In this document: positions 7,084 to 28,924 of the stretch, piece by piece
Layout of the letters: every line of letters starts with the position of its first letter
How positions within the stretch are numbered: position 1 is the stretch's first letter
From: Amphiscolops sp. MND2022
Lineage: Eukaryota
DNA length: 64,000 bases
Direction: 5' to 3'
Assembly (NCBI GenBank): GCA_964187785.1
Contig: OZ076409.1
Location: 1,922,001 to 1,986,000, forward strand
Position numbers and translations under genes: made by a program
Notes under the pieces: model-generated
The model's database searches: none
The model's input: only the letters and a program-made list of their open reading frames with translations
Told to the model about the DNA's origin: nothing

Positions 7084-7298
7084 GTCATTTTAATTTTAAA
7101 TCAGAGACAGTTTCGAAAAGCAACGGCGGCGAGATTTGGTTCCTCCAAATACTTGGAACATTCGGTCAACTGCAAAAGCTTCAGTTTCTCAGAAAACTTT
7201 TTTGAGATGCTATGAAAGACAGGACCTCGGTGTACGTAAAACTCAAACACGTCAACTTCCCATTATGAAAGAAGGTTTTACTTTTAACTAGGCTAGTC

Positions 7299-7464
7299 AG
7301 TAGTAATCGAATTCCCGTTCCTTATATATAAGAAAAATTTAAGCTCGTAAAACCATTAAAAAATTAATCTTTTTTCACAAAATACCAATCAAACCATCTA
7401 AAAATTAGCCTTTTTTCGCAACTAAAAATTTAACAAAATAAAAATCGATGCACAAATTTTCCAA
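7299..7464 (+). repeat. Polinton left TIR
   Basis: AGTAGTAATCGAATTCCCGTTCCTTATATATAAG... is the reverse complement of the right end. Identity decays after about 150 bp. Confidence 0.93.
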
Positions 7465-7892
7465 AGAAACATTTGTCACAAACCAAAATTGAACTAACCT
7501 CCATCGACGTATAATAGAATTATTACCACATCGTGAAGAAATAATGAATACTTACCAAATGCGTTCAAGTAGAAAACACAAGTGTCCAAATTGAAAACGA
7601 GTTTTTTTCTTCATTTTTACCCATTAAAAAATTACATATAAAAATTGATGAACTCATTTTTCAATATAGATAAATTCACGGATGCGCACAAGTGGACACC
7701 ACAACTGTTGGAAAAATTACCACCATATAAATTTCAAACAGAATTTCACGCACCAGACGGTCGTCTGACCTTGAGGTGCATTCGGAATGCACCAAAATTT
7801 CATTTTTCACTTTTCTCTCTACAGTCACAGCAAACAGCATGGCCGAAGAAATGAAACTGGCAAAGAGACTTTTTCCATTCGGACTTTCACTC

Positions 7893-8450
7893 TTAAACAT
7901 GTAGAGATTACTAATAGATCAGGAAAAAAGCCATAACTCAACGAATATTTGAGTTAGAACAAAGTATAATATACCATTGAAAAGGTCTTGACTAGGGTTA
8001 TCTATCTAGATACAATTCAAAAACCTAGACTGAAACTATACCATCTGAAACTTCGAAAAACCTGAAACCCTTAAACATGTAGAGATTATAGAAGTTCAAC
8101 ATATCACAGTGTATGATACATCATTGGAAAGGTCATAAAAAAGAAATCATAGATGGTGATTATCTCCATGATCGGACATCCTCAGCTGAAACTATACCAT
8201 CTCAAACCTGAAACCCTTAAACATGTAGAGATTATAAAAGTTCAACATATCACAGTGTATGATACATCATTGGAAAGGTCTTGAGTTGGAGATCACAGAT
8301 TTTGAATATTTTCATGATTGGGTACCCACAACTGAAACTATACCATCTCAAACCTGAAACCCTTAAACATGTAGAGATTATAAAAGTTTAAGATATTGCC
8401 ATGTGTGATACATCATTGGAAAGGTCTTGAGTTTCTGATTACAGATTATA
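7893..8450 (+). repeat. Polinton subterminal tandem array, period 146 bp
   Basis: TTAAACATGTAGAGATTA at 7893, 8071, 8217 and 8363. Each unit contains a catcattggaaaggtc-like motif. Confidence 0.85.
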
Positions 8451-8600
8451 AAAATTTTCTTAAATGAAAAATTTATCATTCAAATCTGTGGCAAATTTTA
8501 ATACCTTACCACCACAAAATTAAAATTTTTTTCACCAATTTTTTGAAAAATTATAATTGAAAAATTTTTAATTAGACTATTTTTTCTTTAATAAATAGAA

Positions 8601-11600
8601 ATGGAGAATTGTAGTATTTGTAATTTAAATTATAAAAAAGCTTTCAAGTCTGATCATCTAAAATCAGTAAAACATCTTGAAAAATTAAATCAATATTATT
8701 GTAAAAAATGTAATTTATATATGCCTATCTCAGATAAAAGTTCTCATTTAAATTCAGATGAACATAAAAACCGCATCAATAAAATATGGTGTGAAGATTG
8801 TAGTAAATATATATCTGATACAACAAGACATTTCCAACGTGAAATTCATTTACAAAACCGTCAACAAAACGGTATGCAAAGCCAGCGAAGCTGTATTACA
8901 GATTTCGGTACAGCTTTGCTGCCCTCCGGTAATGGAGTAAAAATAATTGTGAATGAAAACACATACATTAAACTGAAAATAAATCCAACTGAAAATCTTG
9001 AAAACCGTATAAAAGAATTATTAAGTAAAAGGTACTTTCCTCGATTTAAATATCAATTGAGTTATCTTGCTAAATTTTCAAAAATAATCAATGGAGAAGA
9101 AGAAGTATTTAAAAGATGGATAAAATCAGATCTAATATATAATCACACACAACAAGATACTCATAACACATTAATACAGAAATTAGATGATGAACAATTA
9201 GAAGGATCAGGTTTTGTGTTTCAAGAAATAGAAGAAGTTATATTAGGAATATATAAAGTTAATGATATTCAAGCATCTTCATATATTGAGTTACCACCAA
9301 AATATAAAAACAGCCAATCAATAAAAAATAAAAAAAATAATGATCAATTTTGTTTTCTATGGTGTATATTAGCATATTTATTTCCAGTTGAGGATAATAA
9401 AAATATAACATCGAGTTATTCAAAACATTTTGATAAATTCAACCTAGAAGGTTTAGAAATCCCTATGAAAGTCAAAGATATTCCCAAGTTTGAAAATTTA
9501 AATATTGGACTGTGTATAAATGTATTCGAACTCACTGGAACTGTACTAACACCAATCCACGTTAACAAAAATTACTTACAACCACAAATAGATTTATTAT
9601 TATATCAAAATCACTATTGTTTAATAACAAAGTTGCATTGTCTAATAAATAAAGATTCACATATGAAACATGTATGTAGAAGACGTTTAACAGCATTTAG
9701 TTCACAACCAGTTCTAATTGATCATTTGGAAAGATGTATAAAACAACAACCAACTAAAATCACATTCAGTTGGAAGGATCAGTTAAAGTTCGAAGATTAT
9801 CATATGAAAGTCCCTGTACCAATAAGAGTATATGCTGATTTTGAATGTATCAATCAACCTCAAAACACCCCCAACGTGTTATTCAAACAAATTCCAATTG
9901 CAGTAGGATATTATGTAGTTTCACCATTCGGAAATTATTACCATTCATACTTTGGAATAGATTGTACCACGTGGTTTGTAAATAGAATGTTAACTTTAGA
10001 AAAAATTGCAAATAACTATTTTAAAACAAATTTAGAATTAGAAATAACTCCTCAATAGGAAGAATCGTTTCAACCTGCAGAAGAGTGTTGGCTTTGTGAA
10101 AAGCCACTCGGTGGTGAAAAAGTTAGAGATCATGATCATCTAACAGGAAAATACAGAGGAGCAAATCATAATATATGTAACATAAATTGTAAACAAAGGT
10201 CATCAAGTTTTGTTCCTATATTTTTCCACAACTTTTCGGGGTATGATTGTCATCTTATTTTTGAAGAACTCTTAACCGAAGCATACAATCAAAATTATAA
10301 TCCAACGATAATTCCAAAATCACTGGAAAATTATGTTAGTGTACAAGTAGGTTGTTTGAGATTCTTAGATTCATACCGATTTCTTTCTTCCAGTTTAGAT
10401 AAATTAGTTAAGAGTTTAGACAATTTTCCTATCATGAAATTGGAAGGAATGAGTGATGATTTATTCAAAAAGAAATTAGCTTATCCCTATGAATACTTAA
10501 ATCTTGATAACTTTCGGGAACCATTAAATCTAACCAAAGAAGATTATTGGTCAACATTAACACAATCTTATCCATCAGATGATGATATAAAAAGAACCCA
10601 TAAATTATTTGAAAAAAATGAAAGTAAAAATGGAAGAGAATTAACAATGTTATACTTAAAAATGGATGTTCTTCAATTTGCTGATGTATTTGAAAATTTT
10701 GTGGAAAGTTCTACACGAGAATATAAAATTAATCCTTTGTACTCTTATAGTCTACCTGGTTATACATGGAAAGCAGGATTGAAGTTGACTAAAATAAAGT
10801 TAGACTATATAAAAGATACAGCGAAGCTGCCCTCCGGTAACGAATTATTACTACTACTTGAAAATAATATCCGCGGAGGAATTTCAAGTGTAATGGGTAA
10901 TAGGCATGTGCAATCTGATGAAAATAAACAAATCTTATATATTGATGCAAATATTTTGTATGGATGGGCAATGAGTCAATACCTTCCTACTGGAGACTTT
11001 AAAAAGATAAAGCTCTGTTGTGAATATGATTCTGTACTGATGAATGAAATTAAAGAAGACATTTTTAATACACCAGATGATAATGAATATGGATTTTTTA
11101 TAGAATGTGATTTAGAATATCCTGTTGAAATTAAAGAAAAAACAAAAAACTTCCCTTTTTGTCAGTATCAAACAAAAGCAGATCCAAACTTATTCTCAGG
11201 TTATATGAATAATGTAAATCAACCTAATTACAAACCAACATCAAAACTTATATGTGATGTAACCAATAAATCGAAATATATGATACATTATAGGATGTTT
11301 AAGTTTTATCTTAACCAAGGGATGAAAGTAACGAAGATACATACTATTTATAAGTTTAAACAAAGTCCATGGTTAGGTAAATATATCGATCATAATACTC
11401 AGAAACGCACAGTAGCGAAAACAAACTTTGAAAAGGATCTTTATAAATTAATGAATAATGCTTTCTTTGGGAAGACTATGGAAAATGTAAGAGATAGAAC
11501 CAATCTAGAATTCATTGATCATTCTCAAATAGATCAAATAATAAAAAGACAATCCAAGTTAAGTTTCAAAGGAATCATGGATCATTACTCTAAGTTTTGT

Positions 11601-12398
11601 GTGTACAAGTTTGATAAAGAAAAAACAGTCTTTGATAAACCAATTTATTTAGGTTTTACAGTTTTAGAACTATCAAAACTATTAATGTATGAATTTTATT
11701 ATAACAAATTACAACCATATTGGAAACAATCCATACAACTACACTACATGGACACTGATAGTTTTATTCTGAGTTTTGATACAAACCACCAAGAACTAAT
11801 AAACTTTTTACAAGAAAACAAAGATGAATTTGATTTCAGTGAATTACACAAATCTCATGAATTATATGATCCTATTAACAAGAAAGTTATAGGAAAAATG
11901 AAAATTGAAACAAGTCCAGTTTTGGTGTTAGATACCTTCACAGCATTGCGATCAAAGTCATATTCTTTTAGTTATAATAATAATATTAATAATAATAATA
12001 ACATACAAAAAGCGAAACAAAAAGGAATACAAAAAACTCCCAAATGTGGAGAATATCAGAAATCATTGTTTAATTCAGACACATCAAGTTCTACAAATAT
12101 ATCAATTAGATCTAACTTACACAACCTTACAGTTGAAAAACAACCTAAGTTGTGTTTGAATCCTTTTGACGATAAACGTTTGTATATAAATCCAATACAA
12201 AGTTTACCATGGGATAAACACACACAAAAAGGTGATTGTCCATGTAAATATTGTTTGAAATTAATTGGTTTGTATTATAAAGAATTAACCGAAAATAAAA
12301 CAGATGAAGAAATATATTGGAGTGTTTGGTATTGGAAACAAGCACTCACCCATCAACAACTTGTGAAGTTGATAAGTGATCGAGCACATGTTTTATAA
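8601..12398 (+). pseudogene. Protein-primed family B DNA polymerase (pPolB) with N-terminal zinc fingers and an endonuclease VII-like domain; one in-frame TAG at 10056-10058
   Basis: ORFs 8601-10058 and 10356-12398 share a frame and the gap is open (CWLC...VRDHDHLTGKYRG..H..CN). Motifs: YADFE, HNFSGYD, FLDSYRF, IRGG, YIDAN.LYG, KLMNNAFFGK, YMDTDS. Confidence 0.95.
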
Positions 12399-12522
12399 AA
12401 ATAATATTTAATTTTTTATTTATATTTATAATTATTATCATTTTATAAAAATAAATATATTATTTTATAAATTTATTTATCATATCAGCAAAGCTGTATT
12501 AATATATTTAAATTATATTTAT

Positions 12523-13752
12523 TCATAATAAATCAAAATGCCTTTGTCCATCACTACTGATACTTATCAGCTTGGGTGTTAGGACTAGGGCATAAGCTAT
12601 ATAATCTGCTACATTAATGGCAGCATTAAATTTGAATTCTAATCTAATAGGTTGACTCCCGATGGGGTCTTTTTGTTTGGATAAATCAAATACATAGAAA
12701 TTATAATTTGTCCTGAATTTATGCAAATCAATAAACGGATTGAGTAGATTAGTTTCACTTTTTAACAAATAGAAGTTTTCAATTTCACTGTATGCTTGAT
12801 CATATTTATCTCTATCATAATCACATTCTATTCCATCATCTGGAAATTTTTCTGATCCTATTTTACAAACAGCATTTGAAATAGGTAACCTATCAAATAT
12901 TGCATTATCATGTGTTTGTGAATCAATTTTATTTCTAGCTTGAAAAGCAACAATTACAAAAGTTGGTGTTGATTCTCCACTATTACCTAATTCAAATGTC
13001 CAATTATTATTCGTGTTAACATCTTTTCTAAATACAATCCGTTCCATGTAAAATAATTCAGTTGGATCTTTGTCTATTATTTGATCCATCACGAGTTGTT
13101 GGTTTTCCATTGATGGTGTGTAGTGTGGAATATGCCAGGAGATGTCTTTTATATTTATTTTTGCAGCATCTACACCATTGTCCATGATAATAGGATCATT
13201 ATTATTATTTCGTTTTAATGTGAGACTGTAACCCAATCCATAAGTTATTTTTTCTTGATCAGCGAATCCAAACAAGTCTTTTAGTTTTATTCTCACAAAA
13301 AAGGTTCCTTTCTCTGTCTTATTGTTAGTTAGTTCTTGTCTTCTGATAGTACTACTTTCTTCAAACCCATACATCAATTGAGAAGTTTGTTGAGTGCTAG
13401 TTAAAAGTTTAATCATTAAAGAGATGGGGTGCAAATTTTCAACTTTTTCTAGGTGTTTTCCCGAACTTGTTGTCAGCTTAGCTTCACTAAATAAAGCAAC
13501 GGGCCCAAAGTTAACTAAACTTATTTGATCACCATCTGCATATCTTGTATCATCATTTTTAAGAACTTCAAATTCTAATGATATATATGAGTTTTGTAAA
13601 CAAATATATGCATCTTCTCTTGGGAAGATGATGGAAATGTTTGAATTATTATTGTTGATTGTAGCTAAACTACTTGGACTATATTTAATAAAATCAATTT
13701 TATGAACAGGTTTATCCATAGCATATTTATTTTTCAATGAAAATAATTCCAT
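12523..13752 (-). CDS. Polinton major capsid protein (double jelly-roll)
   Basis: Intact 409-aa beta-rich ORF. The C-terminal pattern P.FVIVAFQ...FD...YVFDLSKQ...IRLEFKF is typical of Polinton MCPs. Context supports the call. Confidence 0.85.
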   Translation of the reverse strand: MELFSLKNKYAMDKPVHKIDFIKYSPSSLATINNNNSNISIIFPREDAYICLQNSYISLEFEVLKNDDTRYADGDQISLVNFGPVALFSEAKLTTSSGKHLEKVENLHPISLMIKLLTSTQQTSQLMYGFEESSTIRRQELTNNKTEKGTFFVRIKLKDLFGFADQEKITYGLGYSLTLKRNNNNDPIIMDNGVDAAKINIKDISWHIPHYTPSMENQQLVMDQIIDKDPTELFYMERIVFRKDVNTNNNWTFELGNSGESTPTFVIVAFQARNKIDSQTHDNAIFDRLPISNAVCKIGSEKFPDDGIECDYDRDKYDQAYSEIENFYLLKSETNLLNPFIDLHKFRTNYNFYVFDLSKQKDPIGSQPIRLEFKFNAAINVADYIAYALVLTPKLISISSDGQRHFDLL

Positions 13753-13813
13753 TTAAATAGGAATAAAAATTAGGATTTAAAATTTATACTGATTTTATTT
13801 TTACTTAAAATAT

Positions 13814-14335
13814 TTATCCTAAAAAAGTAAACTCAGAATTTAGTTTAGTTTTATTTGTTTTATATAGATCGTAAGTTTGTTTTAATTTGTTGTATTCATT
13901 CAGACCAATTTTATTGTCTTCTAAACATTTTGAATGTAGTTTTTGGTAGTCGTGTAGTGTTCTACCAGCAAGAGTATATTTTTTGATATTTTGTTGTTCT
14001 TTTATTTTCAGGTACTCTCCAGCAATTTTACTGATTATACATAAACCTGCACCTATACCACTTGCTATAGGTACAACAACAAGTCCAACTCCTGTGACAC
14101 TCAACGTGACACATGTTGATGATACTGCTAGTACTGAAACTCCATCAATAGATTGAATTAAACCGTTTATAATTTTATATATTTTAGATTTCTTTTTATA
14201 CTTTTTAGCTTCATGATTATAAAAATTTTGAATATCTTTTATATTTTGAATTGAATTAGTAAAACTATTTATTTCTTTTAATCTAAGATCAAGATTCTGA
14301 TCTTGTTGTAAACATGGGTACAATTTTTCACTCAT
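13814..14335 (-). CDS. Conserved Polinton membrane protein with two hydrophobic helices
   Basis: LYP.L...LRL.EI N-terminus, basic patch, Gly-rich hydrophobic hairpin (VTLSVTGVGLVVVPIASGIGAGL) and C-terminal L.D.KI...EY. Resembles from memory the ORF labelled gasderminX in adintovirus annotations. Confidence 0.65.
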   Translation of the reverse strand: MSEKLYPCLQQDQNLDLRLKEINSFTNSIQNIKDIQNFYNHEAKKYKKKSKIYKIINGLIQSIDGVSVLAVSSTCVTLSVTGVGLVVVPIASGIGAGLCIISKIAGEYLKIKEQQNIKKYTLAGRTLHDYQKLHSKCLEDNKIGLNEYNKLKQTYDLYKTNKTKLNSEFTFLG

Positions 14336-14358
14336 TTATTTTAAATAAAAACTTAATT

Positions 14359-15090
14359 TTAGTTTTCAAAAAGTATGAAATTTATCTCAGTATCGGTTAG
14401 TTTCATTCTATATTTAAGGTCAACTATATCTTTGTATTCATCTTTCTTTAAGCACTTCACGATATCTTCTCGCGTTGAATAGTCTAAGTCTGATAAATAA
14501 TACACACCATCTGATGTCTTTATTTCTGTTCCGTATTTTTCCAACAAGTATTCATCACTAAAATATAAGTACTCAATAAAGATTTGGTCTTTATTTTCAA
14601 ATGAGTCAAACAATCCTTTGTTATATAATAATTGAATAGTATCCTTGACTGCTTGATTTTTACATTTTTCCAATTCTGAAATAAGGTTTCTCTCAAAATG
14701 ATTACGTAAAATGGTTTGTTGTTCTTCCACTAACTTGGCAGCATCCAAAATAATTTCTTTCTTCTTTTCTAAAAATTTATTTTTAACATCTTGTTCTAAA
14801 TATTTCAAATTTCTTTTTATATCTTCTATACTCTTGTTAATGTCTAAGAATAACTTTGCATTGACTACGATTTGTGTTTCATCGTTGATAAATTGAATTT
14901 CTTCTATGTTTTGCAATTTACCGGAGGTGCTTTGCATATTGAACTTTTTTAATTTATCACCAAAGGTGCTTTGTAAATCATTAAGTTTTATATTAATTAA
15001 TTTGGTTTGTGGTTCAAACTCTTTTTCTAAATTCTCAATCTCATCTTTTTGTAAGCTTTCGGCACTATAACCGAATTTATGAATTGACAT
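14359..15090 (-). CDS. Polinton coiled-coil protein of unknown function (MSIHKFG N-terminus)
   Basis: 243-aa intact ORF packed between Polinton genes. Confidence 0.7.
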   Translation of the reverse strand: MSIHKFGYSAESLQKDEIENLEKEFEPQTKLINIKLNDLQSTFGDKLKKFNMQSTSGKLQNIEEIQFINDETQIVVNAKLFLDINKSIEDIKRNLKYLEQDVKNKFLEKKKEIILDAAKLVEEQQTILRNHFERNLISELEKCKNQAVKDTIQLLYNKGLFDSFENKDQIFIEYLYFSDEYLLEKYGTEIKTSDGVYYLSDLDYSTREDIVKCLKKDEYKDIVDLKYRMKLTDTEINFILFEN

Positions 15091-15107
15091 TATTTATTTA
15101 AATATAA

Positions 15108-15966
15108 TTACTCATAACGATGGAAAATATTCATACTTTCTAACGTTTTGTTGTTAGATTCAAAAGTGAATACACTTCTTAAAAGTTCTTGTTCATAATA
15201 TTTTCCTTCTATTTGTTCGTTGTTTTCATCTACTAAACCATACGTAACTGGGTTAGTTGGATTAATTTTGTGTATTTTAAAAAGTTCTCTATTCCAATTT
15301 GTTGTATAACCTTTTGAATAAATGTTCCTTTTGTCAGGAACTCTTACATAGTCTCCCACTTGAAATTTGGGTATTTTTTCATTTTTATTAATATTAATAT
15401 TGATAATTTTATTAGTATTGGTAACCATTTCAAATGGTGTCATTTTTGTTGTTCCATGGACACGATTATTATATTTTTCCATAGCAGTATCTAGATGATT
15501 CAACCAACAAGCTTTACCTTCAATATACATTGGTTTTTTTTATTAGATCTAATAATGTTCTTTTGAAGCGTTCAACAAAAACAGCTTTTAAATCTGAATT
15601 AGTTGAATAAATTTGAATTTCATTTTGATTAAGAAAATCTAAAAATGTTTTATTATAAAACTCTTTACCTCTATCTGACCAAATTTTATCAGGTTTTCTT
15701 TTTGTTTTTTCGATAAGACTTTTTAATGCAGTTGTTGTACTTTTTCCTGATTTATCTTTAAGAGGAATCGCCCATGCATATTTAGTATAGTTATCAATTA
15801 TTGTAAAAATGAACTTATAGTTTTTATTATATTTTGATAAGCTAGCCCTGTCTATCAGATCGATACTCCAACATTCATCTTTATATTGGGGAATTATTTT
15901 AATGCGATCAAACTTTTTAATTACAGGAGAGAATATTTCTTTAACAATTTCTTTCTTTTCATTCAT
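15108..15966 (-). pseudogene. Retroviral-type (rve, DDE) integrase, frameshifted in an A8 run at about 15534-15541
   Basis: WSIDLID, WSDRGKEF and VERF catalytic motifs. Continues in ORF 15108-15530 (YNNRVH...KMTP, FQVGDYVR, KGYTTNW, YYEQEL). Removing one A restores IKKPMY. Confidence 0.92.
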
Positions 15967-15980
15967 TTATTTCCCAATAA

Positions 15981-17011
15981 ATGAATAAAAAACTATATAT
16001 AGGTTTATTATGTGTAATTTTTATTATAATTTTGTGGGTGTATTGGTATTATATTAAACCTAATTATTATAAAAAATTATACCAAAAACTAAAGCAATTC
16101 AAGGGATTTAAATATTCTCATTTACAGCGAAGCTGCCCTCCGGTAACTATCAAAGAAGAAGAACAAGAACTTACTCCACCAAATACAAATACTAATTGAC
16201 AATTTTTGGTGTATGGTACTAGTGGATCAGGTAAGACTAGTTTCCTTAAGTATTATTTAGATCAAACTAAATCAAAATTTATAGTATTCGGTAGAGATGA
16301 GACTGAGTTTAAAGATAATTATATACCTTTGTTACAGTTAGAAAATATTGAAATAGAGAAACTTGCTAATAGAACTATAATTTTAGATGATGCAGGAGCA
16401 TTCAAACAACTCAGAACTAAAGTAGAAGACTTATTTCGGTTTGGTAGACACAATAATATACAAGTTATATACCTTGCTCACTATGCAAAGGATGTTCTCC
16501 CAATAGTGAGAGAGAATTGTTTTAAATTATATATCACAATAAATAATCCAGATAGTTTCATTGAAACCATAATACAAACTTATTCAATCAAAGAAGATCT
16601 CAAATGGAAACAATATCGTAGTCAGTTAGAATTTGGTGTAATTGAATTTGATACTAGATCACAAAAGTATAAAATACTCAATCAAAAGTATCAAGTAGTA
16701 TATGATACAAATAACATAAATGGAGTCCCGAGGATTATGTAAAATATGAAAGTTATTTCTTTACAGGTGAAGAATACAACAAACTCAAGGTGTTTTTAGA
16801 AGAGATGTCAGATCAAACAATTGAAATAACACCTTTTAATGTAGCTTATTATTATGTATATTATTGTAAACAAAATAAAATAAAAGTGAATGAATCTAAA
16901 ATAGACAACTACGTTGAACGCATGCAACAACCACTAATTTCAAATCAACTTAAAGAGGAATTTAGGAAAATTATAATTGATCAAGCAATCAGGTTTAGTA
17001 AAAGTAATTAA
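15981..17011 (+). pseudogene. Packaging-type (FtsK/A32-like) ATPase 1 with N-terminal transmembrane anchor; in-frame TGA at 16197 and frameshift near 16715
   Basis: ORFs 15981-16199 and 16206-16742 are in frame. Walker A GTSGSGKT, Walker B IILDD and GRH motif. The C-terminal part continues in 16790-17011. Confidence 0.8.
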
Positions 17012-17028
17012 AAAATGGGTCTGATTTC

Positions 17029-17150
17029 TTAGTAAAAAATCACTAAGCAAATTCACTAAGAGCATATATTTTTCACTAAGCAAATAAGGTTACACTTAAA
17101 ACATCATGCTCTTAGTGAATTTGCTTAGTGATTTAGTGATTTTTTACTAA
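17029..17150. repeat. Intergenic inverted repeat with ~37-bp arms built of CACTAAG units
   Basis: ttagtaaaaaatcactaagcaaattcactaagagcat (17029-17065) pairs with 17106-17150, which carries an extra 8-nt repeat. Confidence 0.85.
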
Positions 17151-17154
17151 ATGA

Positions 17155-18153
17155 ATGAAGTGTTTAATTTGTGGAAAAAGTAATGAAAAATCTGTCTGCT
17201 CCGATTGAGAGAATAAAAAAAGATGTAAAGTGTGTAATATACTGAAAACAACAAATGGTACAAATATAAATTGGTATAAACATAGAAATGGTAAATTGTA
17301 TAGTACATGTATAGAATGTTTCAATAAAAAAGTAAAATGTGAATTCTGTAATAAAGAATTAAATAAAACTTATTTATCAAAACATTTAAAAAGATGTAAT
17401 AAATTATTAGAAGATGTATCTTATTTAAATAATAATCAAATTGATGATGATAATGAAAATCAAATTGATGATGATAATAATCAAATTGATAATAATCAAA
17501 TTGATGATAATAATGAAAATCATAATAATCAAATTGATGATAATAATAATCAATTTGAAAATAATTGTAATAGGACATTGATAGTTGGCCCATCATTTTG
17601 TGGTAAGACCCATTTGTTATTAAACAAATTACAGTTAATTCGATTGGATGATAATACAAGGAAAATTCATATTATTACAAGGAGTCCGGAACAAAACAAT
17701 AAAATTAAAATAGAAGATGTTTCAGTGGAAGAAGATTTAGGTGATAAAAGTATTCAAGATTTTCAAAATTGTTGTGTTGTATTTGATGATATGTTAGACT
17801 CCAATCAGAAATTAATAGATCCATTTTTTACTAGGGGAAGACATAATGATTTAGATGTTTATTATTTATCACAGTCATACTTTGATTTACCTAAAAGAAC
17901 AATTAGAAACAATAGTAATATCATAATTTTATTTCAACAATCATTGAAAGATGTAGAACACATTTATAGAGACATAGCAGGTTTTGATATGTCTTATGAA
18001 GAATTCAAAGAATTGTGTAGAGAGGCATGGCGGGAGAGGTACAACTATTTATTAATAAATAGGTTAGAAGATAAAAATGGGAGTAGGTATAAAATTTGTA
18101 ATGAATCTAATCCGGAGTATAAAACCTTTAATCCACAAACTGATCCTTTTTAG
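17155..18153 (+). pseudogene. Packaging-type ATPase 2 with N-terminal Cys-rich zinc fingers and NQIDD(N) repeats; in-frame TGA at 17206
   Basis: MKCLICG...VCSD*ENKKRCKVC is in frame with ORF 17230-18153. Walker A GPSFCGKT, Walker B VVFDD, FTRGRH, LSQSYF and IRNN. Confidence 0.88.
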
Positions 18154-19119
18154 TAAATGCTGAAAGAATGTTTTGATGTTGATTTGTTGTAATGCATTGG
18201 TACTGTAATAATTTATCTGCAATTGCTATAATTTGTTCATTAAGCATAGGATTATCATTTCCTCCTACTTTTTCAAAATAAAGTAGTTTTAATTGATCTA
18301 CAAGCTCATCAGGATCCGATGGAAGGAAGACATACTGATTAAATCCACTTCCTAATTGGGATAGTTGATAAGGAATATGTTGATATATGTATTGATTAAT
18401 TAAATCTTTAATGAAATAATATCTCTTTGATTTTTTATCTCCATAATTTATATTATATTTCATATCTTTTAAAAAAGAATAAATTAGATTCGTATTTTGT
18501 GGTATTTTGTCTATTTGTGTATTCGTTATAAAATTTGAAAGATCCGGATCATTCAAATAATACGTGTTACCATTTTGGAATATCATTGCTGAACCTTTGA
18601 TTAATACCTGTTGAGGATCAGTAGGGTTAATTGTGAATAAATTGGAACTTCCTTCCACGGGTTATAAACTAAATTGACTTTTGTTGTTGTCATTAAGCAA
18701 ATTAGAAACTGTCTTAACGATACTAGAATCAACTTGGTTTGAGTTAACAAGATCTGTAACAATTTGATTATTACGATTTGTAATTTTATCATATTCTTGT
18801 ATTCCTTCTTTAACTGATTTATGTAATTTTTTATTAAGAGTATTACTCGATTCTTGTATTGCTCTAGTTTGGTCTTGTATTGCTTGTGTTGTAGTTTGGG
18901 TAGAATCACGTAGTGCTTGAATCTGCTTTTCAGATTCTAGCTTGGTTTGGGTTTGGCTTTTTTTCTGATTTTCAGTAACAGGTTCAAAAACTTCTTCCAT
19001 ATCATAGTGAAAGTCTTGCTTCCCTAGTTTCTCTTTTAATCTTTCAGCTTTCAAAGAAGATTTTGTTTCTGCAATTTTTTTAATTTCTCTAAATCATCTC
19101 GATTATGAATTGAATACAT
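18128..19119 (-). pseudogene. Conserved Polinton protein with C-terminal LP.DP.ELV..L.LL...GN motif; stop at 18662-18664 and frameshift near 19078
   Basis: ORFs 18662-19054 and 18128-18658 are in frame. An upstream ATG at 19119 (MYSIHNRDDL) is joined across an A-run. Confidence 0.7.
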
Positions 19120-19168
19120 AATTTATTATTCATAAAAAATAGCATTTAATTTACAGCAAGGCTGTAAA

Positions 19169-19570
19169 TCAATGAATTTCACCTAAATACAGGCCTTTTC
19201 CTTGATGAACAAATTTTATAATATCAGGAGCAGTTCCAGCTATCATTCGAGGATTTTTACTTGCTGCAGCTGTACCAATATTTGCTGCTAGCTCTAATGC
19301 TCTTCCAGGATTGTTTAAAATTTTCTTTCCGACACTCTTGGCGGCTTTTCCTATACCTCGGAAAAAGTCACCCAATCCTTCTGCTTGTATTGTTTGATCA
19401 GACACTATAAGTGATTTATTTCTTTTACAAGAGGAACAAGTACCTCTTAATAATTTAACAGCTGCTCCTGTTTTTTTATTTTGAGTAATATCTCCACGAA
19501 TATTTATGGTAGCGGAATAATGTTTTCCACCAACACAATATGAATTATTTTTAAATTTACTAAAGCTCAT
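19169..19570 (-). CDS. Small basic virion-like protein: zinc ribbon plus amphipathic helix
   Basis: YCV...C..C, GLGDFFRGIGKAAKSVGKKIL helix, terminal GKGLYL motif. Confidence 0.7.
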   Translation of the reverse strand: MSFSKFKNNSYCVGGKHYSATINIRGDITQNKKTGAAVKLLRGTCSSCKRNKSLIVSDQTIQAEGLGDFFRGIGKAAKSVGKKILNNPGRALELAANIGTAAASKNPRMIAGTAPDIIKFVHQGKGLYLGEIH

Positions 19571-19659
19571 TTATTAGAAAAAAAAATATTCATTTTTTCT
19601 TCAGCACAAACTTTCAGTTTGCAAACTTTTAGTTTGTAAACCTTTGGTTTGTATTTATA

Positions 19660-20685
19660 TTAAATCTTGATGATTTGAATTGTAAATGTTAATGTCTCCC
19701 CGTTGAAATCAACTGGATTATGGTTGGAATCTTCTAAGAAAAATTGAATACTATCTAACCTTGTTTTGTTAATTTTTTTATACAAAATAATTTTGGGTTC
19801 TTTTATAATTTTATATCCGGGAGGAGCACTAAGATTAAATGAAAATAAAATTTGTTCTCTAATCCCATTAACAATTGAACCATCTACACAATCACATTTC
19901 AGATGAACTTTGTCTGTGGTTGTTATCATAACTGGTTTTTCTGATATATGAGTTCCTTGTATATAGTGTGTATTTGTGAATCCTAGAAGTTCATTTAATT
20001 TTGAATTAAAATAAATGGGATTAGAAGTTGTTAAGACTGATTCCATTGATATTGTATTTGCTTCAATGTTGAATTCAAATTCAAAATCACTATCAGAAAG
20101 TTTTTGATTCATAATTCTATTTATATCAATTAATTCGTATACTCCTGGTGTTAATTCAATTTCAACGAAATCATTTTCAATTCCAAATTCAGGAATAATA
20201 ATTGTTTTATCTTTGTTATTTTGATTAATTTGATTAATTATTTTCTTTAGTTGATCAAAATCTTTTTTGATAAGTTTCTTATTTTTAGAATAACTATCAA
20301 TTATAAAATTATTAATTTTTTCTATACCGGAGGTGCTTTGCATATCAGAGATTTTATACAAATACTCAACATTCATTACTAATTGAGTGTCAACGTTTAA
20401 TGATTTGAGTTGTTCGTCTTTTAGAAGAATTTTAAGTTTATTGTTCTTTTCAGTAATGTTTTATACAGTGTTGTATACTTCTAAACTTGTTACTCCCATC
20501 ATCCATTGTTCTGGTAAGTCTAGTGGAATATCAAATGAAAAAGATTCTTTTTGTTTAGTCATTTTAAATTCTAAAGTTTCTTGTGGTTTGGATAAGGTAT
20601 TTTCAACAATATCCAAATTAGATTTTGCAATACTCAATAAAAGAGATTCTTTTTTATCATAGGTTACAAAATTTGATAGATCCAT
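19660..20685 (-). pseudogene. Polinton minor capsid protein (penton, single jelly-roll); in-frame TAA at 20461-20463
   Basis: ORFs 20461-20685 and 19660-20376 are in frame. C-terminus CD.VDGS.VNG...IL..F....PGYKI...P....Y...D....VDFNGE. Confidence 0.85.
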
Positions 20686-20688
20686 TTA

Positions 20689-20892
20689 TTAAGCGAAAAA
20701 TTGTTTAAATCCATTTGCAGATATCTTATTTATAAATTCTTGGTTTTGTTTTGATAATTTCTTTTTTGGATTATTTTTTTCTATTACTTTCTCATCAAAT
20801 TGATTCTCACAGCTTCGCTGGCTTTGCATATTGGTATTCATTGGTTTTTGAATAAATTTAAATTGAGCTGAATAATTATTAATTTTCTTCAT
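20689..20892 (-). CDS. Small Polinton ORF of unknown function
   Basis: 67 aa, abuts both neighbours, starts at TAAATG. Confidence 0.5.
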   Translation of the reverse strand: MKKINNYSAQFKFIQKPMNTNMQSQRSCENQFDEKVIEKNNPKKKLSKQNQEFINKISANGFKQFFA

Positions 20893-21288
20893 TTATAAAT
20901 TTTGGTAGTATAAATTTAAAACTGCATTTTTGAAGCCTATAATTTGTGTAAGATATAACACATACAAACAATAAGCTGCACAATAACTGTCGTCTTTCTG
21001 GATTTGATATTCTGAATAGATACCCTTATTAATTTGTTTTGTTATATTTAGTGGTGGTGGACAGCCATATGAATCGAAATAGTTTTGGTTTGTAAACATA
21101 ACCCAATGTGTTCCTTTAGTTGGATGTAAGTTAACTATACCACTGGTGGTTATAAATTTATCATATCTCATATATATTCCACAAGATGTGTTCATGAGTT
21201 TTAAGATTTCTTTTATTTCTACATTGGAAGTTGCTTCATTTTTTAATCCATATTTATTAACAAATTCTTTGATTGATAAATAATTCAT
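20893..21288 (-). CDS. Adenain-like cysteine protease
   Basis: GTHWV, YFDSYG and Q..Q....CAAYC catalytic motifs. Confidence 0.92.
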   Translation of the reverse strand: MNYLSIKEFVNKYGLKNEATSNVEIKEILKLMNTSCGIYMRYDKFITTSGIVNLHPTKGTHWVMFTNQNYFDSYGCPPPLNITKQINKGIYSEYQIQKDDSYCAAYCLYVLYLTQIIGFKNAVLNLYYQNL

Positions 21289-21336
21289 TTAATAGTTATT
21301 TTTCCATGATTATATCTTGGTCAATGAATTTTCCAT

Positions 21337-21502
21337 TGGAAAAACTTGTTCATTAATTTTTATTTTGTTAATTTTTCAGTTGTGAAAAAAGGCTGATTTT
21401 TAGATGGTTTGATTGGTAATTTGTGAAAAAAGATTAATTTTTTAATGGTTTTACGAGCTTAAATTTTTCTTATATATAAGGAACGGGAATTCGATTACTA
21501 CT
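21337..21502 (-). repeat. Polinton right TIR
   Basis: Ends ...GGAACGGGAATTCGATTACTACT. Confidence 0.93.
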
Positions 21503-22231
21503 AATTCCCATTATGAAAGAAGGTTTTACTTTTAACTAGGCTAGTCTAATGTTTTTAAGAAAAGTTACTTCCAAAAATTTTGGTGTTTTGGGGGGGGACA
21601 GAAAAGTGCCCTCAACACAAGAAATTTCAACACGCTTCGCACTTCATATTAACTTCAGTTCAAAGGTGAAAAATTACTCAGTATCTCTCAATAAACAAAC
21701 TAATTTGTGCCTTTGGATGATTAAGCTTCACTCTTGGTTATACCAATGCCTCGATTAATTATAACTATCAACTATTTAATAAATCAACGTGCACAACTTT
21801 CGTGAAAACTGAAACGGAAAGTTATATGAGAAGCCACTGAGAATTTCTTGCGTTGTGTCGCAGGCGGCCGCCGGTGACGGGACTATGATTACGACTTCAG
21901 AATCTGGACAAGAAGCCGCATGTATACTTCCGACATATTAAAAGTAAAACTTTTGCTTTGACTACACTATTTTAGATTGCCCTTTTGTCATGAATTGTTG
22001 CATTTAGTAATGATATTAGATTTGCAATTAGTATTAGTCTGTTAAATTTTACAATCTGAAATATGCAGATCAAGAATCAGAAGTGCTGTTTGTAACAGAT
22101 TACAAATGAGATCTAAATGCAAAAAGTTGAAGCGGATGTATAACACTGCGTAGAAGTACGGAAACTAGATCATGTGAGCTTCTGTACTTCTGCGGCAGCG
22201 ATACTTTCAAGCATATTATTACCCAATCAGA

Positions 22232-24012
22232 TACATTACCAACCAGGAAATTTACAAACAACAACCCAATTATCCCGGACGATGAATTTATGAGCCCTCC
22301 ACGAGACTATGAACATATGGACAATTGGCTCTTCAGGCCGCACGATGGGACAATCAGCCCCATATCCAGCACCTCTAGTTCAATCGGTTACTTTTCAGGA
22401 AGCGACTGGACAACAGATTCGTCCTGGATGTCTTATGATTCACTGATACATTCTAATTTCCAACCCCCCTTCTTTCCCCCATTCAGGCCGATTTCACCAC
22501 CTCTTCCCATAATGGACGTCCCTCATCAAAGCCGGGGACTGTCACAGCTGCCACAGAGAGAACGCCAGAGCAAAGAAATGGAGAAATCAACCGGGAAGAG
22601 ACGACTAAAACATCACAAACCTGAAAAGAAACAAACAACAAACAAACACTCAAGGATGTTGAATAACCCTGTAAGTGCATGAATATTAATATCTTCAGCC
22701 CAGCGCAGTACCTAAAATACATAGATATGTAAATAATTAAATAATAATAACATACAATGAGTACGATTTGTTTACAGTAATACAGCCGGCACGCTGATTG
22801 AAGACATTCCGATCAGCTACCGGCCAGCTTACTGTCTCAATAGCAAAGCAAAGTATACCTAAGCTTATTGTCCCATTAATTGACCAATCAGCGTTAAGCT
22901 CAAATTCGCAGTATTAATTCAACTACCGTGCTAAACAAACCACCAGTCGACGAAAGCTGGGACGCACGCCTGGCTGCTCGACTGAATCAACCGAAGTGCT
23001 AATATGTTTAAGTGATGTTATGTGTGAACCAAACACAAATTCAAAGCTTAGAGGAAGTTTAAATTGCGCAGTACTCAACAGTAAAGTTGGAAAACGTAAT
23101 ATTTTTATTACATGAAAGTGCGTGTGTAAATTTGTTGATCTTGATAACCGGGACAACCGCCCAGACAACCGTTCAAACAATTAGTGATGTACTAAGCTCG
23201 AATGAGTTATAAATACCGTTGTGATGGTTGTTAATCGTTTAATATACTATGTTTGTTAGCAGAGTGAAGTTTACTCTCTATAACCGCCCGATCAAGTAAT
23301 CCCAAACCCCCCCTTTTCATGTGAATGACTTGTACATTCAACCGGGCCACTCAATCTCGTATGTTTACTGTGCCCACTAGCCAGGCACACGTTTCGTAGT
23401 TAATTTGTTAAATTGCATCAATAATAATCACCGGTACATCTAAGTTGCTATTATCTTTCCCAATTTTAGTAATCCATTAATTTGTGCAGTCTCCCTTTTA
23501 TTGAATAGCCAATTTTCTGTCAAGGGAAATTTCTTTTCTTTTTCCCGCTTCAGTAGCTAGGTTCATGAATTTCAGTGCCAACTTCATCTTCGGCGTCTTG
23601 AAAAGGCGGGGAATGAAGGAGAAAGGGACGCGGAATCGGGAAGCGGCAGGAAGTGAATTCCCACTTTTCTTTTAAGTGAGTTGAAGCCGAACGCCGAGTC
23701 CCGAGGAAGTGTACCTTATTTCAATTTCCTCGCCTCGGAGAGTACGCCGAGGTGAACAAGGTGTGAATTCACGCGCGGGGTTTTCCCGCGTGTCTAGCGT
23801 AAAGTATAAATACCTGAAGCGGGATTAGGAAGGGTTAATTGTTGTTTCAATTTTTCAAGTGTACTTGGCTGTCCGTCAGGATTTACGATTCGGAATAATC
23901 ATTTTACTATTCCTTCTGTATTTAAAATTACTTTGCTTTGTAATAACGTTTGACAAATTGCTTGGAGAAGAACTAGAAGAAGTTGATCTAACTAGGAATG
24001 TAAGCTCCAACA
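22232..24012 (+). mobile_element. 3' fragment of an LTR retrotransposon (copy 1); its LTR (23614-24012) has an internal deletion
   Basis: Purine tract AAAAGGCGGGGAA precedes TGAAGGAG...CTCCAACA (imperfect terminal IR), with a TATAAATA box inside. About 344 bp shorter than the copy at 28182-28924. Includes the Ser/Pro-rich ORF 22290-22682. Confidence 0.65.
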
Positions 24013-25241
24013 GTTTCTAATTTAGTTCTGAGTCTTTTTGTTTCAATATTTTCACAAAATATGTTTTAGAAAATAGGTGGTGGGGGACAGAAAAGAGCCG
24101 TCATTTTAATTTTAAATCATAGACAGTTTCGAAAAGAAACGGCGGCGAGATTTGGTTCCTCCAAATACTTGGAACATTCGGTCAACTGCAAAAGCTTCAG
24201 TTTCTCAGAAAACTTTTTTGAGATGCTATGAAAGACAGGACCTGGGTGTACGTAAAACTCAAACACGTCAACTTCCCATTATGAAAGAAGTTCTGTTTCA
24301 TTCTGATCGTTCAAAAATCCAAATAATTAATAGTTTATGTAACTCAAAGGATAGAATTTTCACAGATAGACCTTAATTCATAACTAATGCTTTGCTTTGC
24401 TCCACAATGAAGCTTCCCGGCATTCTGCAGTCTTGTGATAAAAAAGAAAAACCCTGTTAGGTAATGAAGTTTGAAATTCTTATTGATTTTGCTAATTTCT
24501 AAAAAAACAATTGTTAACTTTTGCAAAAAAGGATAGAAGTTGAAATTTCACCCGTGTTGTCTATATAGAAAATATTGTAAATTCATTTTTTGAGTCTAAA
24601 TATAAAGCAGATTTTCAAGATGCCTTATTCACTGACTAATTACACACGATCAGTTTGAGGATAACAATGTGTACATGTAGAAAGATAATCAAAAATTCGA
24701 GGTCCCAGGCATATACCCAATCTCAGTGATTGTACTGAAAAAATTTCAGTGAAGATTATCTATTTTTCCAGGCAAGCTTTAAGGGCCTCAAAGTCTGACT
24801 GTTCAATCATTGGGCAGTGGTAATTTGAAGGGTAAATTTAAATTTTTTCTGGGATATCCAAAAGCTCAAAAACTTAGATCCCAAATCAAATGTTTTTCAT
24901 TACATAGAAAGATCTTCAAGGGTAATAATATCCGCAATAATTGCCATCGTTGTTTTAAAAAAAACACGATTGTACACTATGTTAATTATCACGAAATGTT
25001 TATAATAACGCATGAGATAGCGCTTGATACTCAATAGTTTTAGAGAAATTTAACACAAATTTAAACATTAATACCAAAAAGGGGTTTCATTCTTTCATCA
25101 CAAGACTATATATATATAATTGGACTCTTTTTTGTCAGCAAAATAAAGATCTTTTATACTTCGAGTTTGATCCAAAAATAGATACTTCAAATTTGGTCTC
25201 AAAAAACGTAAATGGGGGAACAGAAAAAAAATCTATTAAAG

Positions 25242-25437
25242 GTTTTTTTGGCTTGGCAACATACTTGTTTACATCACTGCCCTCACCAGTTGATGAATCA
25301 ATTCTTGTTTCTCCAAGATGTCAACCTACAGAGATTCATTGGCCCTTACGACTATGTAGCCAAAACAGATCCCGACACGTTTTTAACACCCGCTTTTTTT
25401 CTGTGGAAATTTCCAGAGTCCGTAGAATTCGTTGCAG
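25242..25437 (+). CDS. Duplicate of the DxD-motif host exon (copy 2)
   Basis: Identical to 6442-6637 except a synonymous GCA/GCT. Splice sites are retained. Confidence 0.65.
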
Positions 25438-26799
25438 GTAACATTTTAACAATTAAATCACAAACGGATGAAATATCCCCCTTCAAAGTAATTTTCGCGC
25501 TTTTCTGTACCCCCCCCCACCATCAATTTTTTTATTGAAATTTTTTTTTCAAAATTCAACCTGGTTGAATTCGAAGTGAAGTTTTTCCCATAATAGGATT
25601 AACTTCTATTGGAATAGTTTTCATTTGAACAAAACATTTTTCACACAATTTGACTGTGAAAATGTTGAAAATTAACCGTTTTCTGTGACTTAAAACAGGA
25701 AGTTGTTGAGTTTTCAACAAGAATGCGTGACTTCATAACTAAAAATAGCGTGAACAAAGTTGGTTCTGAATTCTAAACTGTCATACTGAGAATGAATATA
25801 AAAGTAAAGGTTTCTAATTTAGTTCTAAGTCTTTTTGTTTCAATATTTTCACAAAATATGTTTTAGAAAAAAGGTGGTGGGGGACAGAAAAGAGCCGTCA
25901 TTTTAATTTTAAATCAGAGACAGTTTCGAAAAGCAACGGCGGCGAGATTTCGTTCCTCCAAATACTTGGAACATTCGGTCAACTGCAAAAGCTTCAGTTT
26001 CTCAGATAACTTTTTTGAGATGCTATGAAAGACAGGACCTGGGTGTACGTAAGACTCAAACACGTCAACTTCCCATTATGAAAGAAGGTTTTACTTTTAA
26101 CTAGGCTAGTCTAATGATTTTAAGAAAAGTTACTTCCAAAAATTTTGGTGTTTTGGGGGGGGGGGGCAGAAAAGTGCCCTCAACACAAGAAACTTCAACA
26201 CGCTTCGCACTTCATATTAACTTCAGTTCAAAGGTGAAAAATTACTCAGTATCTCTCAATAAACAAACTAATTTGTGCCTTTGGATGATTAACCTTCACT
26301 CTTGGTTATACCAAAGCCTCGATTAATTATAACTATCAACTATTTAATAAATCAACGTGCACAACTTTCGTGAAAACTGAAACAGAAAGTTATATGAGAA
26401 GCCACTGAGAATTTCTTGCGTTGTGTCGCAGGCGGCCGCCGGTGACGGGACTATGATTACGACTTCAGAATCTGGACCAGAAGCCGCATGTATACTTCCG
26501 ACATATTAAAAGTAAAACTTTTGCTTTGACTACACTATTTTGGATTGCCCTTTTGTCATGAATTGTTGCATTTAGTAATGATACTAGATTTGCAAATAGT
26601 ATTGGTCTGTTAAATTTTACAATCTGAAATATGCAGATCAAGAACCAGAAGTGCTGTTTGTAACAGATTACAAATGAGATGTAAATGCAGAAAGTTGAAG
26701 CGGATGTATAACACTGCGTAGAAGTACGGAAACTAGATCATGTGAGCTTCTGTACTTCTGCGGCAGCGATACTTTCAAGCATATTATTACCCAATCAGA

Positions 26800-28924
26800 T
26801 ACATTACCAACCAGGAATTTTACAAACAACAACCCAGTTATCCCGGACGACGAATTTATGAGCCCTCCACGAGACTATGAACACATGGACAATTGGCTCT
26901 TCAGGCCGCACGATGGGACAATCAGCCCCATATCCAGCACCTCTAGTTCAATCGGTTACTTTTCAGGAAGCGACTGGACAACAGATTCGTCCTGGATGTC
27001 TTATGAATCACTGATACATTCTAATTTCCAACCCCCCTTCTCTTCCCCATTCAGGCCGATTTCACCACCTCTTCCCATAATGGACGTCCCTCATCAAAGC
27101 CGGAGACTGTCACAGCTGCCACAGAGAGAACGCCAGAGCAAAGAAATGGAGAAATCAACCGGAAAGAGACGACTAAAACATCACAAACCTGAAAAGAAAC
27201 AAACAACAAAAAAACACTCAAGGATGTTGAATAACCCTGTAAGTGCATGAATATTAATATCTTCAGCCCAGCGCAGTACCTAAAATACATAGATATGTAA
27301 ATAATTAAATAATAATAACATACAATGAGTACGATTTGTTTACAGTAATACAGCCGGCACGCTGATTGAAGACATTCCGATCAGCTACCGGCCAGCTCAC
27401 TGTCTCAATAGCAAAGCAAAGTATACCTAAGCTTATTGTCCTATTAATTGACCAATCAGCGTTAAGCGCAAATTCGCAGTCTTAATTCAACTACCGTGCT
27501 AAACAAACCACCAGTCGACGAAAGCTGGGACGCACGCCTGGCTGCTCGACTGAATCAACCGAAGTGCTACTATATTTAAGTGATGCTATGTGTGAACCAA
27601 ACACAAATTCAAAGCTTAGAAGAAGTTTAAATTGCGCAGTACTCAACAGTGAAGTTGGAAAACGTAATATTTTTAATACATGAAAGTGCGTGTGTAAATT
27701 TGTTGACCTTGATAACCGGGACAACCGCCCAGACAACCGTTTACACAATTAGTGATGTACTAAGCTCGAATGAGTTATAAATACCGTTGTGATGGTTGTT
27801 AATCGTTTAATATACTATGTTTGTTAGCAGAGTGAAGTTTACTCTCCATAACCGCCCGATCAAGTAATCCCAAACCCCCCCTTTTCATGTGAATGACTTG
27901 TACATTCAACCGGGCCACTCAATCTCGTATGTTTACTGTGCCCACTAGCCAGGCACACGTTTCGTAGTTAATTTGTTAAATTGCATCAATAATAATCACC
28001 GGTACATCTAAGTTGCTATTATCTTTCCCAATTTTAGTATTCCATTAATTTGTGCAGTCTCCCTTTTATTGAATAGCCAATTTTCTGTCAAGGGAAATTT
28101 CTTTTCTTTTTCCCGCTTCAGTAGCTAGGTTCATGAATTTCAGTGCCAACTTCATCTTCGGCGTCTTGAAAAGGCGGGGAATGAAGGAGAAAGGGACGCG
28201 GAATCGGGAAGCGGCAGGAAGTGAATTCCCACTTTTCTTTTAAGTGAGTTGAAGCCGAACGCCGAGCCCCGAGGAAGTGTACCTTATTTCGATTTCCCCG
28301 CCTCCGAGAGTACGCCGAGGTGAACAAGGTGTGAATTCACGCGCGGGGTTTTCCCTGCGTGTCTAGCGTAAAGTATAAATACCTGAAGCGGGATTAGGAA
28401 GGGTTAATTGTTGTTTCAATTTTTCAAGTGTACTTGGCTGTCCGTCAGGATTTACGATTCGGAATAATCATTTTACTATTCCTTCTGTATTGAAAATTAC
28501 TTTGCTTTGTAATAACGTTTGACAAATTGTTTGACTGACATTCCCATTGCGTTTAAAGCAATTTCGGTTCAATTGAAGTATTATTCCACTACCAATTTTA
28601 CAAGATGCCAGAGAGATCACCAGTCCACTAGCCAGCTAGAAGTAGAGACTGCGAGTTCGATCAATGACAAAAATACTGTGCTGTCAGAAAAAGATTTTGA
28701 AGATATCTCTAATAAGATTGAAAATAAGATTTCTAAACATCTCAGGGATACCGAACTTAATCAACGCGAAATACTAAGGTTGATTGAAAGCCTATCATCT
28801 AAGGTAGATAACTTGTCTAGCGTCAACTCTGAGCAAGGTTACTTAACCACTAGAACTGAAAACAGCGGAAACCCCACTGAAGAACTAGAAGAAGTTGATC
28901 TAACTAGGAATGTAAGCTCCAACA
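26800..28924 (+). mobile_element. 3' fragment of an LTR retrotransposon (copy 2) with full 743-bp LTR (28182-28924)
   Basis: PPT followed by TGAAGGAG...CTCCAACA. The U5 half holds a coiled-coil gag-like open frame (28519-28932). Confidence 0.7.

Follow-up and report, generated by a model that had tools for sequence, protein, structure and literature searches.

Vaccinia virus transcribes its late genes from promoters in which the sequence TAAAT, usually followed by G, overlaps the start codon, and in which the 10th base upstream is a conserved T accompanied by further T's (PMC11980589; similarly PMC5294985; papers are cited throughout for those portions of their text that were accessible). What reads the TAAA bases is the viral polymerase itself (PMC12917281), which starts within the element and slips, giving the RNA a 5' poly(A) leader (PMC4542343, PMC6211774). 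Virophages share the late promoter of their helper, and integrated mavirus remains silent until infection (PMC6428243). Mavirus also has replication of the pPolB (protein-primed DNA polymerase B) type, an rve integrase and a capsid module in common with Polintons (PMC6428243), and elements of Polinton type occur nearly always in the genomes of animals (10.64898/2026.06.19.733378). We describe here a Maverick/Polinton at positions 7299..21502 of a 64,000-nt stretch of the genome of Amphiscolops sp. MND2022 (contig OZ076409.1, positions 1,922,001 to 1,986,000; hereafter 'the window'), at whose gene starts both sequence features of a poxvirus late promoter are found, namely TAAAT overlapping the ATG, and T at the 10th base upstream with flanking T's.

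TAAATG forms the start of 8 of the 12 genes of the element (13752-, 14335-, 15966-, 15981+, 19570-, 20685-, 20892- and 21288-), and TAAAT lies within 10 nt of the start in all 12, as compared with 37 of the 485 ATGs of the element that are not starts. The original prediction, made from the sequence alone, had listed these eight starts and had likened them to poxvirus late initiators; all eight lie at the ATGs that it gave. TAAAT was also correctly placed near 8601+, 17155+ and 19119-, while a fourth such site, at 15090-, had been missed. The genes and their starts are as follows; L022 is a metagenome relative introduced below, and open reading frames are abbreviated ORFs.

8601..12398, + strand: pPolB; stop at 10056-10058; TAAAT at -9 with an upstream T-run.
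12523..13752, - strand: major capsid protein (MCP), 409 aa, PF21738; TAAATG start.
13814..14335, - strand: 173-aa ORF with a hydrophobic core; TAAATG start.
14359..15090, - strand: 243-aa ORF; TAAAT at -6.
15108..15966, - strand: rve integrase, split over two frames by a break near 15520-15540, PF00665, E=1.4e-14; TAAATG start.
15959..15988, both strands: back-to-back TAAATG pair of integrase and ATPase 1; 14 nt separates the two ATGs.
15981..17011, + strand: A32-like ATPase 1; stop at 16197-16199, frame change near 16715-16742; TAAATG start.
17155..18153, + strand: second P-loop ATPase (ATPase 2) with a Cys-rich N-terminus, putative Walker motifs read from the sequence; stop at 17206-17208; TAAAT at -7.
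18128..19119, - strand: conserved Polinton ORF, homologue of a 278-aa ORF of L022 (E=2e-4); frame change near the 5' end, stop at 18662-18664; TAAAT at -6.
19169..19570, - strand: 133-aa basic ORF; TAAATG start.
19660..20685, - strand: probable minor capsid protein (putative penton), 47% to an ORF of L022; stop at 20461-20463; TAAATG start.
20689..20892, - strand: 67-aa basic ORF; TAAATG start, the TAA of which is the protease stop.
20893..21288, - strand: cysteine protease, 131 aa; TAAATG start, no gene upstream.

Ten of the starts have no other ATG between them and the last stop in frame; those at 17155 and 19119 are inferred, in broken genes, and at 17155 the ATG of the nearby TAAATG (17151) is out of frame with the gene. 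The comparison with internal ATGs that had been proposed as a check gave a clear enrichment: TAAATG occurs at 17 of 485 non-start ATGs (Fisher p=5e-9), and at 5 of 93 in an AT-matched control restricted to ATGs with at least 80% AT upstream (p=2e-6). Shuffling of the upstream 40-mers of the same genes gave an expectation of 0.8 TAAATG (P=1e-7). The motif was picked post hoc; corrected 64-fold, the p values of the exact-motif tests still stay at about 1e-4 or below. Run blind on the first ATG of every ORF of at least 100 aa, a pipeline found TAAATG at 5/13 ORFs of the element versus 27/281 in AT-rich controls (p=0.008); the blind count is this low because six of the 13 are internal restarts behind breaks. 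On the host side, TAA precedes 44 of 1587 ATGs, and one of 15 ORFs starts with TAAATG. The thought that high AT content and tight packing produced the pattern by chance draws on the 27.5% GC of the element and its 170 occurrences of TAAAT; it is hardly conceivable in view of the AT-matched and shuffle tests (p about 1e-6 to 1e-7), the low frequency in AT-rich control loci and the conservation in relatives described below.

Alignment of the 23 starts available, 12 in the window and 11 in relatives, on TAAAT revealed a second element that the original prediction did not contain, an upstream T-tract. T reaches a frequency of 0.83 at -11, 0.78 at -10 and 0.70 at -7; between -22 and -3, 13 of the 23 starts have five T's in a row, where 2.4 were expected. 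T at -10 was found at 18/23 starts against a background of 0.41 (p=3e-4), and at 9/12 in the window, a position set by the published vaccinia consensus (PMC11980589) after the profile had been made. TT at -11/-10, a test picked after the profile had been seen, distinguishes 17/23 starts from 27/158 non-start TAAAT (p=8e-8), and does so in the window alone (9/12, p=5e-5). The starts of integrase and ATPase 1, which lie 14 nt apart in a palindrome as previously described, illustrate how compact the arrangement can be: the A-rich first codons of either gene, on the opposite strand, form the T-tract of the other, and because of this double use two full promoters fit in about 40 nt. A role of the T-tracts as splice or trans-splice acceptors was rejected for the window, since just 1 of its 12 starts has an AG within 12 nt (5/11 in relatives).

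The motif is conserved in relatives. An alignment of the nearer capsid homologues led to nine metagenome loci, L020-L028. Within L020-L027, all 11 ORFs of at least 100 aa start with TAAATG, as do all 11 starts of a hand-made, non-redundant list that includes small ORFs and ORFs cut by contig ends and from which three near-duplicate starts and loci L023-L025 were dropped. The relatives represent two lineages (L021; L020 with L022-L027), which together with the window make three, at 41-51% capsid identity; they form one clade, with SH-aLRT branch support of 97 in a first, quick tree, whose long branches leave deep placements unsure, and of 95-100 in a later one. Gene order differs between the window element and the relatives, and in L027 the motif is retained within the coding end of the upstream gene. 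Members of the clade were not found in the viral-contig, genome-contig or phage collections searched.

As controls we used all other loci fetched by polymerase, protease, integrase or distant capsid queries, among them other Polintons, polinton-like viruses (PLVs), virophage-like elements and giant-virus contigs; six duplicate loci were dropped, the set is not fully non-redundant, and starts were called as first ATGs, some of them wrongly. TAAATG starts 58 of 987 ORFs in these 93 loci; for loci with up to 31% GC, the number of loci behind the 27/281 is 30. The highest frequency at any of the 86 control loci with at least five ORFs is 33%, and the giant-virus loci are without the strict TAAATG pattern. 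A further set of 49 loci (two duplicates removed) gave 8/163, five of the eight belonging to a single locus outside the clade, L130 (5/12). Motif, spacing, conservation and specificity are shown by these data.

We next consider what the motif does at the level of RNA or protein. TAA lies in frame with the ATG, so that TAAATG could be a translation signal, coupling stop to start on a polycistronic RNA or blocking upstream extension by an in-frame stop; alternatively, it could be a polyadenylation signal packed against the next gene. The start at 20892 is a true stop-start junction, as had been cautioned, that at 20685 lies only 3 nt behind a stop, the protease starts of L020 and L027 are true junctions, and AATAAA overlaps 8/12 window starts. 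The other six of the eight sites are not junctions: they follow gaps of 23, 61 and 89 nt, belong to the two divergent starts, or precede the first gene. Four genes retain TAAAT without an in-frame TAA, TAG or TGA precedes only 1/12 starts, the protease of L022 retains TAAATG without any junction, and AATAAA overlaps just 1/11 relative starts. Signals of this kind would also leave the T-tract at -10 unexplained, and we regard them as a very unlikely explanation. A Kozak effect as the source of the motif was ruled out by the base at -3: eight of the nine starts with AA at -2/-1 have T there, whereas three distant Polintons, L001-L003, have A in 41/46. T at -3 makes a poor start context for scanning.

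We consider it on balance probable that all genes of the clade have late promoters read by a cytoplasmic RNA polymerase of pox type, which a helper virus provides, much as the giant virus does for mavirus. Every gene would then have its own promoter of roughly 20 nt, with the centre of the T-tract 10-11 nt upstream of TAAAT, the initiator, which in most cases overlaps the ATG. Transcription would start within the AAA of TAAAT, and the slipping viral RNA polymerase would add a non-templated poly(A) leader, whereby the T at -3 would become A. RNA polymerase and late factors would be supplied by a co-infecting poxvirus or a close relative; the element would integrate via its rve integrase, lie silent, and be expressed, replicated and packaged late in helper infection. 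The transcription machinery would come from the helper because no RNA polymerase or transcription factor genes are recognisable in the element; a divergent transcription factor may be present among the ORFs of no assigned function. Since virophages share giant-virus late promoters and integrated mavirus is silent until infection, we read the clade as elements that integrate and parasitise a pox-type virus. The helper, the virions, the start site and poly(A) leader of the transcripts, and silence as long as a cell is not infected are what we infer.

Several observations weigh against a pox-type late promoter. The motif is short and AT-rich, its overlap with AATAAA in the window counts on the same side, and the 11 relative starts stem from two lineages only. 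L028, a degraded locus within the clade, has longer A-runs rather than the exact TAAATG (0/1). There is a gradation towards a broader promoter style of Polintons, since L130 has TAAATG at 5/12 ORFs and L001-L003 have TAAA in 40/46. A TATA-like palindrome is present in both terminal inverted repeats (TIRs), and the family is so numerous that frequent germ-line insertion would be needed, which is easier for an element transcribed by the host. Lastly, pPolB bears no pox early-gene signature: an early promoter and terminator were rejected for this gene, because the early motif is matched 21 times within the element, at 8553 among other places, and the terminator T5NT occurs twice inside the gene. 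A codon-shuffle test for avoidance of nuclear signals did not discriminate: it found 46 sense AATAAA against 44 expected in the element but likewise 6 against 5.8 in a nuclear Gypsy element, and splice-donor and T5NT counts were not significantly low.

An alternative is transcription by the nuclear RNA polymerase II (Pol II) of the host, from a compact, clade-specific core promoter or from a TATA-like box in the TIRs giving long, processed transcripts, the likeness to poxviruses being convergent. Besides the palindromes and the size of the family, this is favoured by the need of the integrase for a nucleus, by CpG depletion of the element (115 vs 155 expected) and by the related Polinton L112, which has short, Pol II-like upstream regions. 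TCAGT is an initiator-like sequence; it is found at 4/9 starts of L112, yet before only 1/12 window starts and none of the 11 relative starts. The scarcity of AG near the window starts, though not in the relatives, and the poor scanning context that T at -3 provides also argue against Pol II, as do the rarity of TAAATG at host-side ORFs and the A at -3 of the Gypsy start. To our knowledge, the fixed spacing of T at -10 has no Pol II counterpart, and we judge nuclear transcription of this kind to be unlikely. The original statement that a gap of 14 nt is too short for Pol II promoters nevertheless went too far: promoters can lie in neighbouring coding sequence, L112 has its TCAGT sites close to the starts, and both TIRs contain the TATA-like palindrome. 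The proposal of poxvirus-late promoters is partly supported: it gains from conservation in three lineages and from the T-tract peak at -11/-10, and its argument from want of room is weakened.

If the element does depend on a helper, this could also be some other large DNA virus, for instance iridovirus-, asfarvirus- or egovirus-like, with a similar AT-rich late promoter. Iridovirus promoters have been reported to contain AAAAT and TAAAT motifs (PMC5294985), TAAAN serves in the linear plasmids of yeast (PMC6211774), related styles form a continuum (TAAA with an A-run and then a T-run in L001-L003 and L130; TATA-rich PLV and virophage loci), and no poxvirus is tied to the host here. Exact overlap of TAAAT with ATG together with T at -10 has, by contrast, been described for poxvirus late genes (PMC11980589), while in the accessible reports the motifs of iridoviruses, asfarviruses, mimivirus and CroV differ in sequence or position, and giant-virus control loci are without the pattern; the accessible text on egoviruses gives no account of their promoters. 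A helper from outside the poxviruses therefore appears quite improbable.

The likeness to vaccinia-type late promoters extends to back-to-back use within a few bases, alongside TAAAT over the ATG followed by G and T at -10 with its flanking T's (PMC11980589, PMC5294985, PMC4542343). In contrast to vaccinia, the Polinton motif sits on an integrated 14-kb element without an RNA polymerase and precedes all genes, polymerase and integrase included. The yeast cytoplasmic linear plasmids pGKL1/2 are likewise pPolB-type replicons with a pox-like TAAAN initiator, and their poly(A) leaders are made by slippage; unlike the Polinton, they have their own RNA polymerase and an upstream ATNTGA element and do not integrate (PMC6211774). 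ATNTGA is absent at 11/12 Polinton starts, and the Polinton has no RNA polymerase. According to the parts of the literature accessible, the helpers of mavirus and Sputnik are Mimiviridae and their hosts protists, their capsids are those of Lavidaviridae and their motifs are different, whereas the Polinton has a capsid of the PF21738 Polinton type, a pox-type motif and a putative helper; not a lavidavirus by its capsid, it may by analogy work like one. The entomopoxvirus-associated PLVs AHEV_PLV1 and CBEV_PLV1, which were found in occlusion bodies, are in the accessible text without a known integrase, unlike this Polinton (PMC11296320); the words promoter, motif and TAAAT do not occur in the main text of that paper.

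Other Polintons sampled here differ from the clade in their starts: the strict motif is absent (L109-L112, L121, L134, L147) or TAAA is followed by extra bases (L001-L003). In the distant L001-L003, the stretch from -21 to -16 is A-rich, that from -14 to -8 is T-rich, and TAAA lies within 14 nt of the ATG in the 40/46 ORFs mentioned; L130 shows the same layout of A-run, T-run and TAAA in 10/12 ORFs. This layout, of which the A-run is a tentative feature, resembles published vaccinia intermediate promoters. L109-L112, of the same capsid superfamily as the clade, have TAAATG at 0/29 starts, and the TCAGT of L112 lies within 40 nt of the starts concerned, one of which also has a TATA-like site. 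These observations suggest that Polintons can be sorted by promoter style into Pol II-like, TAAA-type and strict TAAATG. In L028 (positions 100-200), divergent integrase and capsid starts overlap within about 20 nt, the longer A-runs standing before the ATG. A further 45 loci with Polinton-like polymerase genes, L115-L159, came from bacterial and archaeal genome bins and are probably contigs of eukaryotes or viruses that were binned wrongly.

Its gene content and TIRs make the element a Maverick/Polinton (Polintoviricetes), sharing with that group the TIRs, pPolB, rve integrase, MCP, penton, A32 ATPase and protease (10.64898/2026.06.19.733378; PMC10328495). Its 12 genes are pPolB, the PF21738 capsid, the rve integrase, two ATPases, the probable penton, the protease and five other ORFs. 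pPolB and integrase are both broken in this copy, and the minor capsid is recognised through similarity to L022 only. At 14,204 nt the element is slightly below the usual size of about 15-20 kb; it has AGTAGT termini and 27.5% GC in host DNA of roughly 32-44%. Its boundaries are as follows.

7255..7298, + strand: target duplication, left copy, 44 nt, with one mismatch between copies; the right copy is at 21503-21546.
7299..7465, + strand: left TIR, with the TATA-like palindrome at 7321-7332.
21336..21502, - strand: right TIR, with the TATA-like palindrome at 21469-21480.

The TIRs are 167 nt each and 93% complementary; the palindrome in each is a perfect one of 12 nt, which might serve replication as a melting site or be an element for Pol II. 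Polinton target duplications are typically short, about 6 bp. The duplication of 44 nt is atypical for Polintons and is a property of this one insertion event; the target sequence is single-copy at empty paralogous sites near 26068 and 29183 in the window. Host DNA at 21582-29570 and 31589-38138 consists of kb-sized dispersed and tandem duplications, and the Polinton lies inside one such unit. The left TIR and pPolB are separated by 1.1 kb without genes, in which 2.8 copies of a 146-nt unit are found (8058-8459). As stops or frame changes break six of the 12 genes, the copy is inactive. An intact Gypsy gag-pol ORF of 1558 aa lies at 56459-61135, and its coding sequence, unlike the Polinton, is not CpG-depleted. 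The capsid has 1502 homologues, the best 120 of which are 81-97% identical and mostly on long contigs, from which we conclude that the family is very large.

Among the individual genes, pPolB is 34-36% identical to the polymerases of L001-L003 and had no Pfam match in a profile search, and the capsid profile of the clade matched no solved structure by sequence. ATPase 1 homologues are matched by Pox_A32 (PF04665). Its Met at 15981 is taken as the true start because it is the first residue in 44 of 47 longer homologues; the segment that follows (15981-16199) encodes a hydrophobic, transmembrane-like N-terminus conserved in the 47 homologues, which is unusual for a packaging ATPase. In ATPase 2, an Asn/Asp/Gln-rich tandem repeat (17427-17565) links the Cys-rich N-terminus to the P-loop. 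The His, Asp, Gln and Cys columns of the protease alignment are invariant. As for the small ORFs, the 173-aa ORF has a feature match, scored 0.92, with clusters in which Preplasmiviricota abound, which is no more than a lead; an Atlas search with the 243-aa ORF gave no usable match; the 133-aa basic ORF is presumably a core protein; and BLAST of the 67-aa basic ORF against the small ORF of L020 gave no match.

Our literature search, to which subscription journals were mostly closed, returned no report of pox-late-type promoters in Polintons, nor any on the promoters of animal Polintons, and none is contained in the accessible portions of PMC10328495, PMC3061580 and 10.1101/2024.03.23.586382. 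The use of helper promoters is known from virophages; as far as our searches reach, its pox-late form in integrase-bearing Polintons is new. It has long been asked whether the Polintons of animals are autonomous in the nucleus or need a helper virus, and the literature accessible to us reports neither virion nor helper for them. A conserved pox-type late promoter names a candidate class of helper and makes the question testable. If the proposal is true, it would explain why Polinton virions have gone unseen, point to unknown poxviruses in the hosts, and extend the idea of endogenous virophages as a defence to animals. More tentatively, and with some doubt, endogenous poxvirus parasites might make up an entire branch of the Polintons with an integrase, one that is common in the genomes of animals, this clade having promoters of late type and its wider relatives L001-L003 and L130 promoters of intermediate type. 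In that event their hosts would harbour undiscovered poxviruses, and integrated copies could give animals an inducible defence against viruses, in the way that mavirus protects a protist.

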